A program made the position numbers and the translations under genes. Below, piece after piece: positions 1 to 63,430 of a stretch of 64,000 nt of DNA. The stretch covers positions 65,844,001 to 65,908,000 of the forward strand of contig OX597815.1 in NCBI GenBank assembly GCA_951406725.2, given 5' to 3'. Position 1 is the first letter of the stretch. Each line of letters starts with the position of its first letter. The notes below the pieces were generated by a model, which was not told where the DNA came from, ran no database searches, and saw only the letters and a program-made list of their open reading frames with translations. Source of the DNA: Octopus vulgaris (taxonomy: Eukaryota).

Positions 1-3000
1 GCACGCGTATTTATCGTTATGGTAAAATCTGGCGTGTGATTGAGTGGATTTCATCCAGATAGTCTTGGCTGACGAGCTACAAATGGATTTTTTGTAGGTA
101 AAATTACATTTAATTCATTAATAGCGAAACAATTGTCCCAAAATAATCTGTATTTTTGTTATTTTTTATTTGCCCTGTCCGTGTGAGCTAACAATCGTAC
201 TGACTTTCATGGGAAGCATGTATTTTCGTGGTTGAAACCTTTTGGATTAACTGGTGCTAGAGTGAGCAATATAGTGACCACTCTCTTATATTTATTTTGT
301 AAAAATATTATAATATGTTATAAAATATTATAATAATCCAGGTTTCTCAGAGCACTAGGCCACTTGGTGTTGAATAAATATACTATTAAATTAGTATCTA
401 ATTCTCTCACCCTTATTAATTAATTATAATTATGCTGCATTTATTTCTAAATGCTGTATTTGTTTTCCGTGAAAGTTTGGCGCGCTGTTGGTTGGGGCAT
501 TTGAATTATAACGTCGGATGTAATCAATTGAACCGCACGCGTATTTATCGTTATGGTAAAATCTGGCGTGTGATTGAGTGGATTTCATCCAGATAGTCTT
601 GGCTGACGAGCTACAAATGGATTTTTTGTAGGTAAAATTACATTTAATTCATTAATAGCGAAACAATTGTCCCAAAATAATCTGTATTTTTGTTATTTTT
701 TATTTGCCCTGTCCGTGTGAGCTAACAATCGTACTGACTTTCATGGGAAGCATGTATTTTCGTGGTTGAAACCTTTTGGATTAACTGGTGCTAGAGTGAG
801 CAATATAGTGACCACTCTCTTATATTTATTTTGTAAAAATATTATAATATGTTATAAAATATTATAATAATCCAGGTTTCTCAGAGCACTAGGCCACTTG
901 GTGTTGAATAAATATACTATTAAATTAGTATCTAATTCTCTCACCCTTATTAATTAATTATAATTATGCTGCATTTATTTCTAAATGCTGTATTTGTTTT
1001 CCGTGAAAGTTTGGCGCGCTGTTGGTTGGGGCATTTGAATTATAACGTCGGATGTAATCAATTGAACCGCACGCGTATTTATCGTTATGGTAAAATCTGG
1101 CGTGTGATTGAGTGGATTTCATCCAGATAGTCTTGGCTGACGAGCTACAAATGGATTTTTTGTAGGTAAAATTACATTTAATTCATTAATAGCGAAACAA
1201 TTGTCCCAAAATAATCTGTATTTTTGTTATTTTTTATTTGCCCTGTCCGTGTGAGCTAACAATCGTACTGACTTTCATGGGAAGCATGTATTTTCGTGGT
1301 TGAAACCTTTTGGATTAACTGGTGCTAGAGTGAGCAATATAGTGACCACTCTCTTATATTTATTTTGTAAAAATATTATAATATGTTATAAAATATTATA
1401 ATAATCCAGGTTTCTCAGAGCACTAGGCCACTTGGTGTTGAATAAATATACTATTAAATTAGTATCTAATTCTCTCACCCTTATTAATTAATTATAATTA
1501 TGCTGCATTTATTTCTAAATGCTGTATTTGTTTTCCGTGAAAGTTTGGCGCGCTGTTGGTTGGGGCATTTGAATTATAACGTCGGATGTAATCAATTGAA
1601 CCGCACGCGTATTTATCGTTATGGTAAAATCTGGCGTGTGATTGAGTGGATTTCATCCAGATAGTCTTGGCTGACGAGCTACAAATGGATTTTTTGTAGG
1701 TAAAATTACATTTAATTCATTAATAGCGAAACAATTGTCCCAAAATAATCTGTATTTTTGTTATTTTTTATTTGCCCTGTCCGTGTGAGCTAACAATCGT
1801 ACTGACTTTCATGGGAAGCATGTATTTTCGTGGTTGAAACCTTTTGGATTAACTGGTGCTAGAGTGAGCAATATAGTGACCACTCTCTTATATTTATTTT
1901 GTAAAAATATTATAATATGTTATAAAATATTATAATAATCCAGGTTTCTCAGAGCACTAGGCCACTTGGTGTTGAATAAATATACTATTAAATTAGTATC
2001 TAATTCTCTCACCCTTATTAATTAATTATAATTATGCTGCATTTATTTCTAAATGCTGTATTTGTTTTCCGTGAAAGTTTGGCGCGCTGTTGGTTGGGGC
2101 ATTTGAATTATAACGTCGGATGTAATCAATTGAACCGCACGCGTATTTATCGTTATGGTAAAATCTGGCGTGTGATTGAGTGGATTTCATCCAGATAGTC
2201 TTGGCTGACGAGCTACAAATGGATTTTTTGTAGGTAAAATTACATTTAATTCATTAATAGCGAAACAATTGTCCCAAAATAATCTGTATTTTTGTTATTT
2301 TTTATTTGCCCTGTCCGTGTGAGCTAACAATCGTACTGACTTTCATGGGAAGCATGTATTTTCGTGGTTGAAACCTTTTGGATTAACTGGTGCTAGAGTG
2401 AGCAATATAGTGACCACTCTCTTATATTTATTTTGTAAAAATATTATAATATGTTATAAAATATTATAATAATCCAGGTTTCTCAGAGCACTAGGCCACT
2501 TGGTGTTGAATAAATATACTATTAAATTAGTATCTAATTCTCTCACCCTTATTAATTAATTATAATTATGCTGCATTTATTTCTAAATGCTGTATTTGTT
2601 TTCCGTGAAAGTTTGGCGCGCTGTTGGTTGGGGCATTTGAATTATAACGTCGGATGTAATCAATTGAACCGCACGCGTATTTATCGTTATGGTAAAATCT
2701 GGCGTGTGATTGAGTGGATTTCATCCAGATAGTCTTGGCTGACGAGCTACAAATGGATTTTTTGTAGGTAAAATTACATTTAATTCATTAATAGCGAAAC
2801 AATTGTCCCAAAATAATCTGTATTTTTGTTATTTTTTATTTGCCCTGTCCGTGTGAGCTAACAATCGTACTGACTTTCATGGGAAGCATGTATTTTCGTG
2901 GTTGAAACCTTTTGGATTAACTGGTGCTAGAGTGAGCAATATAGTGACCACTCTCTTATATTTATTTTGTAAAAATATTATAATATGTTATAAAATATTA

Positions 3001-4700
3001 TAATAATCCAGGTTTCTCAGAGCACTAGGCCACTTGGTGTTGAATAAATATACTATTAAATTAGTATCTAATTCTCTCACCCTTATTAATTAATTATAAT
3101 TATGCTGCATTTATTTCTAAATGCTGTATTTGTTTTCCGTGAAAGTTTGGCGCGCTGTTGGTTGGGGCATTTGAATTATAACGTCGGATGTAATCAATTG
3201 AACCGCACGCGTATTTATCGTTATGGTAAAATCTGGCGTGTGATTGAGTGGATTTCATCCAGATAGTCTTGGCTGACGAGCTACAAATGGATTTTTTGTA
3301 GGTAAAATTACATTTAATTCATTAATAGCGAAACAATTGTCCCAAAATAATCTGTATTTTTGTTATTTTTTATTTGCCCTGTCCGTGTGAGCTAACAATC
3401 GTACTGACTTTCATGGGAAGCATGTATTTTCGTGGTTGAAACCTTTTGGATTAACTGGTGCTAGAGTGAGCAATATAGTGACCACTCTCTTATATTTATT
3501 TTGTAAAAATATTATAATATGTTATAAAATATTATAATAATCCAGGTTTCTCAGAGCACTAGGCCACTTGGTGTTGAATAAATATACTATTAAATTAGTA
3601 TCTAATTCTCTCACCCTTATTAATTAATTATAATTATGCTGCATTTATTTCTAAATGCTGTATTTGTTTTCCGTGAAAGTTTGGCGCGCTGTTGGTTGGG
3701 GCATTTGAATTATAACGTCGGATGTAATCAATTGAACCGCACGCGTATTTATCGTTATGGTAAAATCTGGCGTGTGATTGAGTGGATTTCATCCAGATAG
3801 TCTTGGCTGACGAGCTACAAATGGATTTTTTGTAGGTAAAATTACATTTAATTCATTAATAGCGAAACAATTGTCCCAAAATAATCTGTATTTTTGTTAT
3901 TTTTTATTTGCCCTGTCCGTGTGAGCTAACAATCGTACTGACTTTCATGGGAAGCATGTATTTTCGTGGTTGAAACCTTTTGGATTAACTGGTGCTAGAG
4001 TGAGCAATATAGTGACCACTCTCTTATATTTATTTTGTAAAAATATTATAATATGTTATAAAATATTATAATAATCCAGGTTTCTCAGAGCACTAGGCCA
4101 CTTGGTGTTGAATAAATATACTATTAAATTAGTATCTAATTCTCTCACCCTTATTAATTAATTATAATTATGCTGCATTTATTTCTAAATGCTGTATTTG
4201 TTTTCCGTGAAAGTTTGGCGCGCTGTTGGTTGGGGCATTTGAATTATAACGTCGGATGTAATCAATTGAACCGCACGCGTATTTATCGTTATGGTAAAAT
4301 CTGGCGTGTGATTGAGTGGATTTCATCCAGATAGTCTTGGCTGACGAGCTACAAATGGATTTTTTGTAGGTAAAATTACATTTAATTCATTAATAGCGAA
4401 ACAATTGTCCCAAAATAATCTGTATTTTTGTTATTTTTTATTTGCCCTGTCCGTGTGAGCTAACAATCGTACTGACTTTCATGGGAAGCATGTATTTTCG
4501 TGGTTGAAACCTTTTGGATTAACTGGTGCTAGAGTGAGCAATATAGTGACCACTCTCTTATATTTATTTTGTAAAAATATTATAATATGTTATAAAATAT
4601 TATAATAATCCAGGTTTCTCAGAGCACTAGGCCACTTGGTGTTGAATAAATATACTATTAAATTAGTATCTAATTCTCTCACCCTTATTAATTAATTATA
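1..4700 (+). repeat. 534-bp tandem array (about 8.8 copies, continues left of the window), one hammerhead ribozyme per unit; retrozyme/Penelope pLTR-like
   Basis: GCACGCGTATTTATCG recurs at 1, 535, 1069, 1603, 2137, 2671, 3205, 3739 and 4273. Units look identical by eye. The array ends at ...ATTAATTATA and runs into (TA)n at about 4700. No ORF of 60 aa or more. Confidence 0.98.
56..150 (+). ncRNA. Type I hammerhead ribozyme (first of 9 copies; others start at 590, 1124, 1658, 2192, 2726, 3260, 3794, 4328)
   Basis: Stem I TTGG(65-68)/CCAA(138-141), extended by CAGAT(56-60)/ATCTG(146-150). Core CTGACGA(69-75). Stem II GCTA(76-79)/TAGC(122-125). GAAA(126-129). Palindromic stem III ACAATTGT(129-136). 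GUC triplet, cleavage predicted after C137. Confidence 0.85.
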
Positions 4701-4810
4701 TATATATATATATATATATATTATTTATATTATATATATATGTATGTGTATGTGCGTATTTGTTTATATACGTATGTATATATGCTTATATATATATTAT
4801 TTATATATAC

Positions 4811-5005
4811 CTGGGCAAATTTCTACAAGGAATACCAGATGCTCCACCTGTACCTGGATACAACTCAGTCAACAACAACTCCCTATTTGAATGAGTTATG
4901 ATACCACAAAACCTGACTTTAAAATTATTTAACAGATCCTATCAGGTGGTGCTATTAATTTAGATATGGCCTGAGCCCATCTTTGGCCGAAGCATAACTA
5001 AGTTT
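4811..5005 (+). mobile_element. 3' end fragment of CR1-type LINE
   Basis: Similar to the 3' end of 7390-8125 (GGATACAACTCA..AACAA.AACTC, CCTATCAGGTGGTG.TATTAA, ATGGCCTG). Confidence 0.7.
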
Positions 5006-5063
5006 GATACACAACGGGCTTCCGTCAACCAAATTTCTTCACAAGGCGTTGATTGGACCGGAA

Positions 5064-5370
5064 AATGGCTGTTTTTACTCACAGTTGAAAACTGTTCCAA
5101 AAATTTGAAGGGTAATATTTGAAAAGAAATGTTTTGCTTGAATTACAACAGTGCAACTGCAAATTACTGATTATATGTATGTATGTGTGTATGTATGTAT
5201 GTATGTATGTATGTATGTATGTATGTATGTATGTATGCTGATATATGTATATGAATATATGTATGCGTATTTGTACGTACGTAGAGATCCATCTGGTTTC
5301 GTTGAAAGCTTTCTAACCCAGGATATGTTGTATCCAGAGACAATCCTTGCGGTGAAAACACTCCTCCTTA
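5064..5370 (+). mobile_element. Internally deleted mariner fragment with (TATG)n
   Basis: Paralogue of 5985-6340; encodes DPSGFVESFLTQD (first catalytic Asp region). Confidence 0.65.
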
Positions 5371-5984
5371 CACTTACCCAAAGTGCCGAGCAGTGGGACT
5401 GAACCCGAAATCCACGTGATTACAAAGCGAACTCCTTAACCATGCAGCTATGTCTTTGCCTATATAAAATCATTGTGTTGTATGTGTGTGTGCGTGTGTG
5501 TGTGCGCGCTTGAACGTGTGTGTGTGTGAGTGTGTGTGTATGCGCGTGTGTGTGTATGTTCTTCGTTTTATCTGTGTATATGCTTACACCTACTCCTATG
5601 CGTCCGATATATTATTGTTTTCAACATGAACAACTTGCTTATGTCAACAAATTTTACCAAAAACTTATTTGTATAAATTAAAATATACGTTTATATTTTT
5701 TATTCAATTTAATTTTATTTTTCAGTTTGACTTTTATCGTTACCGAGTATATTTTCATAGTTTTAGTTCCGCCGATGACGTCATTGTCATCATTATTGTT
5801 GCTGCTGCTGATATTTTTTAATATGTTTTTATTAGTTGTTGCTGCTGCTGTTGGCCTCATTAATATTTTTATTTTCGTTTATGTACTCAGATTTTGCTGG
5901 AAGCTTTCCTTTTTTTTATTTTGTAGTTCATTTTATTTGTGTTATATTTAATGTTTTATTTCCTAACGAAGTCAGCTAAAACAA

Positions 5985-6088
5985 AATGGCTACTTTTATT
6001 CACAGCTGAAAATTGCTCCAAAAATTTGAATGATGATTTTTAAAAAGAAATATTTTGCTTGAATTACAACAGTGCAGCTGCAAATTAC

Positions 6089-6120
<32 letters not shown>

Positions 6121-6891
6121 TGTATGTATGTATGTATGTATGTATGTATGTATGTATGTGTGTATGTATGTATGTATGTATGTATGTATGTATGTATGTA
6201 TGTATGTATGTATGTATGTTTAAATATGTGTATATATGTTTATGGGCGCGTACAGATCCATCTGATTTCCTTGAAAGTTTCCTAACCCAGGATGTTTTTC
6301 TATCCAGAGACAATCCATGCAGTGGAAACACTCCTCTTCACCTGCTCCAAAGAAAGCCAATTTTGTTTCATCTGCGGGGAAAGCGATGACCTTAGTTTTT
6401 GGGGGATGCAAAAAGGTATTGTGTTTGTTGGCTATTTTCAAAAAGGCTATACCATCAATGGAGGGTACTATACCAACTTGCTGAGGTTGTTACGAAAGGC
6501 TATCAAGAACAAACGACCACGAAAATTTACAAAAGAGGTTTGATTCATCATGGTAATGCTCCAGCATACAAGTCCTAGCTTTCAATGGCTGCTGCATGTG
6601 ACTGTGGTTTTGTACTGGTTGATCATCCTCACTACTCTCCTAATTTGGCCTCATCTGTCTATGTTCTGTTCCCCAACGGGAAAAAGGCACTTGGCTAGGA
6701 GCCAGTATCGCAATGATGATGACGTCGTATCTGTTGTTGATGACTTTTTTGATCACCAATTGGATCCAAGCACTTCAGCACCAATGGAAAAAATGTATGG
6801 AATGCAAGGGGGACTATATTGAAAAATAAACCTCATTTGGTCACATTCTATGAGAGTATCTTACTCTCCCTTTGGACAGCCGATCCTCGTA
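5985..6891 (+). mobile_element. Decayed Tc1/mariner transposon (transposase C-terminal pseudogene plus 3' end)
   Basis: Frameshifted remnants FLTQD, KGIVFVGYFQKGYTINGGYYTNLL..LRKAIKNKRP, HPHYSPNLASS-like, RSQYRNDDDVVSVVDDFF, GDYIEK*. Ends in ...CCTCGTA. Confidence 0.88.
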
Positions 6892-32365: not shown

Positions 32366-33762
32366 GGAGTTAAACGCAGGTGTTATTCAAATTCTTTTAC
32401 TTCCGACACATGTTTCCAAGATATCAATGGTATTATTCCAAAGGAATAATATGGTGTAAAACAATGTAATCTTCTCTTCGGGGAAGTGAAGAAATGAAAC
32501 TCGTCAATAAGACATTTTAGCAGAAACTGATGGATATGTATAGTGATTAACTGAACGCTATTAAGATTGTTTAAAAAAAAACGTTATTGGATATAACGTC
32601 AGAGGTAGCCTATAGAAAGAGGAGGGACAAAGGGAAGAAAAACTAAATAAATGAGAAGTATATGACTATATGTATATTAAATAAAACCATACAGACTTGG
32701 AAAATATATATATCTAGTGAATGTGAAATGTAAGAAGAAAATTAATGTTTAGATTATATATAATGATAGATATCACTTATATGAACGAAAGGTGTGTTTC
32801 TGCCAATGTCTACATCGGTATGCACGCTCTATAACCGTGTTTACAAGGGGATTTTTGAAGAAAGAATAAAAAATAGTTCAGAATTACAGAGAATCAACCA
32901 ATCTAAATTAAATTGTTTATTGTGGATTTTTAGATCCCAAAATTAATTTACTAAGCTCTGTACTGTTACGTTTATTCCTATCCCTAGATGTAGAGTGATG
33001 ATAAGAAATTCTTTTAGATAACTGAGAAGATGTGCTTCCTATATAAAAATATACTTCATTGCCAATAGTAATTTTACAGTGGTATTTAGAATTTTTAATT
33101 TTAGTGTTACTTGACATAAACTTGATTCTGTTGTAATTGACTTCAGATACAATAACCTTGTTATTAATATTTCCAGGGGAATGGATGGTATTAGCATAAT
33201 TAATGTTAGTATTAGTAAATGTATCAATATTTAACAGGTTGATATTATGTGAAGAGATAATTTGTAAGAGATTTTTTGTGTTGGAAAAAGCAAGAGTAAT
33301 ACCTAGAATTCTTTGGAAAATTCCCAATTATAGCTTCAGGAAACTGCAAAGGAAGATTAGATTTAATTTGTCTCCCGTATGGAATAATTAACCAAATTGT
33401 TGTACTATTAGTTATCTTATTTTTAGTGTAATTATTTTTGAAAGACATAGATTTACCTTTAGAATGAAAATAGGAGATTATATAGTCATATACTTCTCAT
33501 TTATTTAGTTTTTCTTCCCTTTGTCCCTCCTCTTTCTATAGGCTACCTCTGACGTTATATCCGATAACGTGTTTTTGAAACAATCTTAATAGCGTTCAAT
33601 TAATCACTATACATATCCATCAGTTTCTGTTAAAATGTCTTATTGACGAGTTTCATTTCTTCACTTCCCTGAAGAGAAGATCACTTAGTTTTACATCATT
33701 TTACTCCTTCGAAACATGCGTCAGAAGTAAGAATTTGAATAACACCCGCGTTTAACTCCATC
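32366..33762 (-). mobile_element. 5'-truncated Penelope-like retroelement: GIY-YIG endonuclease remnant, 3' pseudo-LTR (32366-32672), inverted pLTR at the 5' end (33480-33762)
   Basis: ORF 32917-33327: KYHCKITIGNEVYFYIGSTSSQLSKRISYHHSTSRDRNKRNSTELSK (GIY-YIG). About 290-bp inverted repeat. A hammerhead in each pLTR. Flanked by AT microsatellite. Confidence 0.85.
33663..33728 (+). ncRNA. Type I hammerhead in Penelope pLTR (decayed partner at 32399-32487, minus strand)
   Basis: ACTTC(C) CTGAAGA GAAG...CTTC GAAA CATGCG TC (A)GAAGT; GUC at 33720-33722. Confidence 0.7.
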
Positions 33763-62994: not shown

Positions 62995-63430
62995 AAGAAT
63001 GGAGTCGAACGAAGATGTTAACAAAATTCCTTTACTCTCGACATATGTTTCGAAGGCAACATGGTTTCATTCCAAAGGAATAAAGGGTGCATTATGCAAT
63101 CTTCTCATCATATTCTCTTCTCTAAAGTTCCCCTTGTAAACACACTCATAGAAAAATCATACAAATGTAAACACTGGCAGAAACATACTTTCTACTCATA
63201 TAAATGATAACGATAGTCACTGTGGTTTGAACAATTAGCTTAACGTGCACTCCACTTCAATAGCGAAATTCTTTCCTAAGCCTTCGAACATTCTTTCAAT
63301 CAACGTACCCTTCCCTCTCCACTTGTTCCCTACCTATTATTCCTTTAACCCTACTCTTCCTACTATCTATCTTTGACGTCAATTCTTCTAACTGTTTTTT
63401 TAAAAACACTCATTGTCGATTTGTTTACCA
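62995..63430. mobile_element. Penelope remnant of the 32366-33762 family (inverted pLTR piece with truncated hammerhead 63035-63110, plus sense endonuclease end)
   Basis: Minus strand TGATGA GAAG...CTTC GAAA CATATG TC. Plus strand CCCCTTGTAAACAC...TGTAAACACTGGCAGAAACA matches 32790-32855 (minus). Confidence 0.65.

Follow-up and report, generated by a model that had tools for sequence, protein, structure and literature searches.

A hammerhead-bearing tandem repeat of Octopus vulgaris is probably a retrozyme copied by a Penelope-like enzyme that starts twice on one RNA

How does a non-coding repeat with a hammerhead ribozyme motif in every unit come to stand as a perfectly uniform array in a (TA)n microsatellite? 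This question is raised by the first 4,700 nt of a 64,000-nt window of the Octopus vulgaris genome (GenBank assembly GCA_951406725.2, contig OX597815.1, positions 65,844,001 to 65,908,000, forward strand). The window array is a young retrozyme without long terminal repeats (non-LTR retrozyme), of a known class. We put at roughly two in three the probability that it was copied by a Penelope-like reverse transcriptase (RT)/endonuclease starting twice on one, probably circular, RNA. An earlier note, made from the letters of this stretch, described the array and its hammerheads, but neither the inverted arm nor the two-site end rule reported below.

From position 1 through 4700, each base equals the base 534 positions further on with zero mismatches, giving 8.80 perfect 534-bp units; the homogeneous array that the earlier note had described is exactly periodic. 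The extent given there was correct for the window, but the array starts ~3.4 kb before it and an inverted partner arm had been missed. The whole element (locus L031) is head-to-head. Its long plus-strand arm measures 8,082 bp, or 15.1 units, one of which has a 1-nt deletion. Upstream lies a minus-strand arm of 722 bp that ends in (TA)n at unit position ~298, and the two arms are joined at unit positions 111 and 356 with a 2-nt overlap. The unit has a GC content of 32.8% and is non-coding, the longest stop-free stretch in six frames being 72 codons. A tblastn search of the 4.8 kb that precede the element, with two proteins of Penelope-like elements (PLEs) from the same genome, detected no PLE open reading frame (ORF). 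An adjoining Penelope ORF had been named as the sign of a multimer of pseudo-LTRs (pLTRs) rather than a stand-alone retrozyme, and nothing in that stretch shows the array to be such a multimer.

We then asked where arms end in other copies. The genome comprises 2.8 Gb in 227 contigs, and we parsed 80 loci. Half of them are the top-scoring 40 among 1,086 candidates; the other half come from the first 42 A ends on the list for contig C1, two of which were already in the first set. Arms end at two sites 130 nt apart in the unit, called A (position 428; class limits 415-432) and B (~298; class limits 280-335). In 51 of the 80 loci a minus arm precedes a plus arm; the other 29 lack this arrangement and include the compound locus L116, which holds a further, uncounted A/B pair. 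Both outer ends were seen in 47 two-armed loci; the window provided the A end of L031 and the listing of B ends provided L122 and L135, whereas L141 is the one two-armed locus not assigned to end classes. All 50 resolved two-armed elements combine one A end with one B end. This is the case for 26/26 elements chosen on full units (p ~1.5e-8 under free choice with a probability of one half) and for 24/24 resolved elements chosen on their A end, a set that could not show B/B. Coordinate lists for C1, which overlap the A-end-chosen set, gave 20 A/B, no A/A and no B/B pairs among 64 A and 52 B ends.

The rule extends beyond this family. A/B pairs were found in 7/7 elements of a sister family (26 loci, no A/A or B/B, with patterns that miss some ends), in 7/7 of an unrelated 353-bp retrozyme (14 loci; two further inverted loci that had lost one end were dropped), in 3/3 of a 594-bp family (9 loci) and in 9/9 of an autonomous 3.6-kb Hydra-clade element (12 loci), whose tail is 155 nt. 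In each of two Neptune families, one inverted copy likewise has the tail at one end only. In the 534-bp, sister and 594-bp families, a hairpin with GGTG/CACC as its closing pairs precedes site A by ~17 nt, a pattern with 1,277 plus-strand matches in the genome versus 20 for the control; a similar hairpin precedes site B by 14 nt. The family has the anatomy of PLE insertions, i.e. an inverted 5'-truncated copy, a tail at one end and a (TA)n target. Penelope-type mobilisation, which the earlier note had proposed, gains support from the inverted arms, the (TA)n ends and an end rule common to a Hydra-clade PLE.

The relationships between the two arms inform on the template. Arms of the same element differ at 18 of 12,618 sites (0.14%; 34 elements), compared with 2.36% between elements (1,109 pairs). 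After exclusion of 7 of 51 pairs as rearranged or cut off, 44 simple pairs were available for a nesting analysis. Eight of them are not nested and hence are not fold-back copies (9.4 expected by random pairing), and 37/44 junctions are non-palindromic. The two arms are separate cDNAs. As the A arm extends beyond the far end of the B arm in 26/44 pairs, strand displacement is needed if one RNA serves both. The arms overlap by 0-5 nt at 28 of 49 junctions and are separated by a gap of 1-62 nt at the other 21. They cross the predicted ribozyme cut site 262 times, and stops at unit positions 126-146 are not in excess (7 versus 5.0 expected, 124 ends), which indicates that the template is continuous there. 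A clustering of 5' ends just past the cut, seen in 7/14 one-armed arrays at 128-190, was not repeated in a second set and was rejected. Sporadic variants at matched units are shared by both arms in 2 cases and unshared in 42; when units are matched from the junction side, 1/36 is shared. The simplest model involves one RNA, two target ends and two different starts. Fixed variants require passage through a single unit, and in combination with the low sharing of sporadic variants this favours a ligated monomer as the template. We put a circle against a linear multimer at about three to one, and on these sequence patterns a circular RNA copied in rolling-circle fashion is the likelier template.

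The hammerhead motifs described from the window were also confirmed. There are nine complete type I motifs (69-137, 603-671 and so on to 4341-4409), against none in 100 shuffles, and the predicted cuts, after 137+534k, are those listed in the earlier note. In unit 1, stem I pairs 62-68 with 138-144 and, in its distal part, 56-60 with 146-150. The core CTGACGA (69-75) is followed by stem II (GCTA at 76-79 with TAGC at 122-125), which closes a 42-nt insert, and by GAA (126-128); the cleavage-site C is C137. Stem III consists of two pairs only (129-130 with 135-136) around an AATT loop, and ACAATTGT is palindromic. The core pattern is intact in 245/252 full copies of the 80 loci. N7, a free core position in the established hammerhead numbering, is C, A or G in 210, 32 and 14 family copies, respectively. 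The sister family has a 503-nt unit with 403/499 identical alignment columns (81%) and the same core, stem II and stem III, and two of its stem I pairs are swapped on both sides. In a covariation test of stem I, 95.8% of the cells were paired, versus 27-39% when one side was slid, and a C-A mismatch in stem I of the window is mended in two subfamilies through different changes. This covariation supports a maintained fold and does not prove that the ribozyme is active. Dimeric cleavage, which has been reported for axolotl retrozymes (PMC7229834), would be possible with the palindromic loop III.

Of the searches proposed to verify the motif, the pattern search found all nine copies, whereas the Rfam hammerhead families gave no match at gathering score, nor at E up to 10, likely because of the long stem II insert. 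The predicted plus-strand monomer folds at -150.1 kcal/mol (z -6.0 versus shuffles). The minus strand of the unit likewise folds better than shuffles (z -4.9); as both strands do so, fold energy was dropped as a sign of polarity, which is based on the hammerhead alone. At locus L132, a core change at unit position 70 is fixed in 5/5 units and in both arms; its ribozyme is likely impaired, yet it was copied as a multi-unit array.

At the genome scale, we counted 2,025 exact copies of a hammerhead 20-mer, 855 exact junctions of the A end with TA and 357 plus-strand B-end junctions, with controls at 0; the minus-strand matches of the B-end pattern are multiply counted. We estimate the family at about a thousand insertions. 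Its arrays are dispersed over at least 20 contigs, as dimers to multimers with no LTR-flanked body, as expected of non-LTR retrozymes. Within arrays, there are 140 sporadic substitutions in 133,177 bases; between arrays, there are 68 fixed variants, 21 of them private to one array. (TA)5 is found within 40 nt of 143/152 ends, 40 of those ends having been selected with TA in the pattern. The earlier note had anticipated dispersed arrays of varying copy number, and these were found genome-wide with (TA)n flanks and private haplotypes; the (TA)n insertion site that it had inferred is present at both ends of the window element and across the family. Its description of a young non-autonomous retrozyme agrees with the non-coding unit, the uniformity within arrays and the dispersed copies.

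We propose the following mechanism. Plus-strand transcripts would cleave after C137, and a host ligase would close the 534-nt monomer. A dimer of a PLE protein would bind hairpins B and A and cut both strands of a (TA)n tract, after which one target 3' end would prime at A and the other at B. Each enzyme would continue with strand displacement over a random distance, for up to 15 rounds, and a head-to-head element would arise when the two cDNA ends are joined, either at 0-5 nt of microhomology or with a short filler between them. Failure of one cDNA would leave a one-armed array. A broader reading, to which we give an even chance, is that these genomes record a step of Penelope transposition in which one dimer grips a hairpin pair on a single RNA and makes one cDNA per cut DNA end. 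The retrozyme would then be a minimal ribozyme-made circle that keeps only the two-hairpin handle and is rolled up to 15 times, both ways from the insertion site. If true, the dimer-on-two-hairpins reading would account at once for three features of all endonuclease-containing PLEs: their tandem copies, the tail on one side and the inverted arm.

Several observations weigh against a circular template or against this use of it. Self-cleavage, ligation and the circle are predictions here, and the covariation of stem I rests on essentially two lineages. Eight of nine Xenopus retrozyme dimers were reported not to cleave (bioRxiv 10.64898/2026.07.22.740005). For the anole PLE in vitro, uncleaved RNA was the main substrate, ribozyme-dead RNA was inserted as well as the wild type and start sites did not differ between the two DNA strands (PMC11167929). 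The end rule is silent on circularity, since the autonomous 3.6-kb Hydra element obeys it. Two sporadic variants are found in both arms (C148T in L042 and T370C in L049), and others recur exactly three units apart in L036, L048, L068 and L122. A perfect monomer circle does not give such recurrences, and later exchange of units or a multimer template must therefore be allowed. Equal haplotypes in the two arms could also be obtained from two molecules of one dominant master. Finally, the unit has no DNA similarity to the two active PLE families or the 25 GIY-YIG loci examined, which sample only some of the PLE families.

Some of these points would fit two-site priming by a PLE on a long, uncleaved linear multimer read from an array, with a slow or protein-dependent hammerhead and with unequal exchange lengthening and homogenising the arrays. 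Variants recurring two or three units apart, and one variant common to the same unit of both arms, are in line with such a template, as are the dominance of unprocessed RNA for the anole PLE in vitro (PMC11167929), the A/B rule of the 3.6-kb autonomous element and the two-pair stem III. However, up to 15 hammerheads would have to remain uncut in one 8-kb RNA, though stem I is conserved by compensatory change; the arms share only 2/44 sporadic variants at matched units; and the 68 variants fixed through whole arrays, often in both arms, call for a one-unit bottleneck. We regard this explanation as unlikely, though less so than those that follow. An inverted arm made by self-priming or by fold-back, with either an antisense template or the first cDNA as substrate and with ends set by endonuclease resolution, has been proposed for PLEs (PMC3846280, PMC8557442) and appears distinctly improbable here. 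The inner ends do lie within 20 nt of each other at 7/44 junctions, versus 3.1 by shuffling (p ~0.04), and the minus strand folds well (z -4.9). Against these stand the 37/44 non-palindromic junctions, the 8/44 arm pairs that cannot be mutual copies, the 1/36 sharing of junction-side variants and the window element itself, which joins unit positions as distant as 111 and 356.

No more credible, and perhaps slightly less so, is the idea that the unit is the pLTR of an autonomous PLE family not yet found, the arrays being ORF-less by-products with a passenger hammerhead. In Xenopus, 24/57 retrozyme families match known repeats, nearly all of them PLE pLTRs (bioRxiv 10.64898/2026.07.22.740005), and our partner search took in only some PLE families. 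Yet no PLE ORF lies within the 80 parsed elements, 22 sister loci or 12 A-hairpin loci, where tblastn matches are neighbouring fragments, and the fixed variants form a subfamily tree that belongs to this family itself. An ordinary satellite or assembly artefact with a chance hammerhead-like motif is the least probable explanation by far. The 8.8 units of the window are identical and their number comes from an assembly; nevertheless, for the family this explanation is already refuted by the scatter of its arrays across at least 20 contigs, by their constant end sites, (TA)n flanks and private haplotypes, by a motif that is absent from shuffles and has a covarying stem I, and by the occurrence of almost the same sequence in 20 public runs from 8 studies.

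The retrozyme copied twice from one RNA, as we favour, has relatives among described systems. Metazoan non-LTR retrozymes (coral, mussel, axolotl and newt satellite 2) are an established class (PMC7229834; bioRxiv 10.64898/2026.07.22.740005). They share with the octopus family low-GC non-coding tandem units, one type I hammerhead per unit, a short stem III with a palindromic loop and co-occurrence with PLEs. Their units are reported to be 170-400 nt (PMC7229834) or 51-972 nt (bioRxiv 10.64898/2026.07.22.740005), versus 534 nt here. In contrast with them, the octopus family has the 42-nt stem II insert, a cephalopod host and no pLTR homology among the Neptune and Hydra families examined. Its insertions are two-armed and inverted and end at fixed sites in (TA)n, whereas the main texts of both papers describe no inverted arms. 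We found no cephalopod retrozyme in the literature, the supplementary family lists of these two papers being outside the search. The earlier note did not recognise the family as a described one, which is right as far as that search goes, but the class is described.

Hydra- and Neptune-clade PLEs resemble the family in having partial tandems, an inverted 5'-truncated copy, a one-end tail, a (TA)n target and a hammerhead (PMC8557442; PMC3846280). In contrast, the retrozyme has no ORF, its tail is 130 nt versus a published 30-40 nt (155 nt for the Hydra element and ~34 nt for Neptune in the same genome), and its one-end rule is strict. The one-sided tail of PLE insertions is already known and is described as occurring 'often' or 'optionally' at one end. 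In the accessible literature on PLEs (PMC8557442, PMC11167929, PMC3846280 and PMC11722881 among it), we found no text that assigns the two ends of an insertion to different start sites of a single RNA; subscription papers, including the 2006 PLE survey, lay outside the search. Within that scope, the strict A/B rule was not found in print. The closest biochemical parallel is anole Poseidon PAc (PMC11167929), whose purified protein, a predicted dimer, cuts and extends both DNA strands at an AT-rich target and uses two internal RNA start sites that bound the tail. That study saw no strand difference in start site and did not relate one end of an insertion to the other; here, the two ends always use different sites and have a single haplotype.

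Twin priming of LINE-1 also yields head-to-head inversions with a microhomology joint, from two target ends that prime on one RNA. Here, however, each of the two starts has a fixed internal position, and the arms, which overlap in sequence, may each run through many units.

The mode of PLE insertion, and whether PLEs move animal retrozymes, are stated as open questions (PMC8557442, PMC11167929, PMC7229834, bioRxiv 10.64898/2026.07.22.740005). A protein-free 534-nt unit carries the full PLE insertion signature in ~1,000 young copies, and its strict A/B rule makes a sharp prediction of two cDNAs with two different start sites on one RNA. Being small and having two mapped hairpins, the unit can serve directly as a substrate in tests of purified PLE proteins, and likewise in tests of whether a natural circular RNA is reverse-transcribed by the rolling-circle route.

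Which PLE would serve as the partner? Searches through GIY-YIG loci, the 781-codon Neptune and 899-codon Hydra proteins, hammerhead patterns and the A-hairpin pattern revealed no autonomous element with similarity to the unit. The active Neptune family has RVT_1 and GIY-YIG domains, and the Hydra-clade element is 3.6 kb with a Hydra DKT motif; both families reside in (TA)n and have their own hammerhead motifs. The Hydra-type RT resembles Hydra-1_Obim, as judged by eye against the PMC8557442 supplement. Because the tails are long, the partner is most likely of the Hydra clade. A 9-mer common to the unit and a Hydra-like end region was within chance. A chimaera of a Hydra RT fragment with a sister retrozyme (L216) was rejected as proof of partnership: its paralogue L229 shares the 5' flank and contains the Hydra ORF without interruption, showing that the retrozyme of L216 had landed in an older Hydra copy.

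As for expression, at least half of the unit words, in near-identical sequence, are present in 20 public runs of 8 studies, none of them on record as RNA; these runs are contigs that we guess to be RNA. A>G and T>C dominate the differences in four runs (52/57, 15/23, 19/27 and 8/18 places). Of the 13 clustered edit-like positions checked first (375-399, 111-122, 505-511), 12 are invariant in 229-307 genomic units. Positions 168, 222 and 236 are likewise invariant, and 237 has 2 G. The changes resemble hyper-editing (A-to-I) on both strands, to which inverted arms would be prone, in a comparison with DNA that is not from the same individuals. In run X10, over window positions 146-851, contigs of depth ~1,000 with one haplotype matching the N7=A subfamily tile the whole unit, and A>G-rich contigs have depths of 3-12. 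This could be abundant unedited monomer beside rare edited read-through, contig depth being a poor measure in a run guessed to be RNA.

Table 1. Positions, in window coordinates, of the features of the array
Feature	Position	Strand	Basis
Last 8.80 units of the element's long arm	1..4700	+	Self-comparison of window and upstream DNA
Type I hammerhead, unit 1; period 534 bp, last core 4341-4409	56..150	+	Pattern match and covariation
Predicted 534-nt monomer between two cuts (eight in window)	138..671	+	Hammerhead motif positions
Site B: hairpin 259-264/279-284, then CTTAT; arms end ~298; read through here, last copy 4531-4570	259..298	+	Arm ends
Site A: hairpin closed by GGTG 366-369/CACC 408-411, then CTTAT; arms end at 428	366..428	+	Arm ends
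Terminal site A copy, 3' end of the element (unit position 428)	4638..4700	+	Repeat comparison
(TA)n target microsatellite, right end	4697..4809	.	Window sequence

Among minor observations, an Rfam match of window positions 171-316 to U4 small nuclear RNA (snRNA) had E=5.1. A U4 origin was rejected, as the score of 22 versus U4 genes of the same genome was reached by 99 and 144 of 300 shuffles. Five U4 snRNA genes are clustered at C4:66160391-66179427; a further gene is on C18, and 36 weaker matches are dispersed. A bacterial promoter scan was uninformative. To the right of the array, 4810-5340 and 5950-6340 are two related repeat copies around (TATG)n tracts. Further along the window, a Hydra-type PLE remnant (32776-33397, minus strand, and 33669-33722, plus strand) is 38-70% identical in pieces to the 899-codon protein and is adjoined by a separate type I hammerhead motif, and 63109-63204 (plus strand) corresponds to a short C-terminal piece of a Hydra-type ORF.

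Elsewhere in the genome, L251 (C1:119513500-119523400) contains more than 2.5 tandem copies of full 3,624-bp Hydra-type units, in whose ORF RT and endonuclease are separated by a long Asn/Ser-rich linker; most single Hydra-type insertions exceed one unit in length. The active Neptune-type family (L102-L107) has a second long frame upstream of its 781-codon frame and a hammerhead-like motif in its pLTR with a core that begins with T instead of C. Near-identical duplicated segments of C1 at 7.5 Mb and 205-206 Mb (L227, L228, L229 and L230) occur with and without a sister retrozyme insertion. Outside the 534-bp family, we counted 701 hammerheads with a short stem II (control, 15) and 3,062 with a stem II region of 58-88 nt (control, 5). 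Most of them have a palindromic loop III, and they include the 353-bp and 594-bp tandem retrozymes as well as an abundant AT-rich element that harbours a 104-nt hammerhead (L197, L213 and L214).

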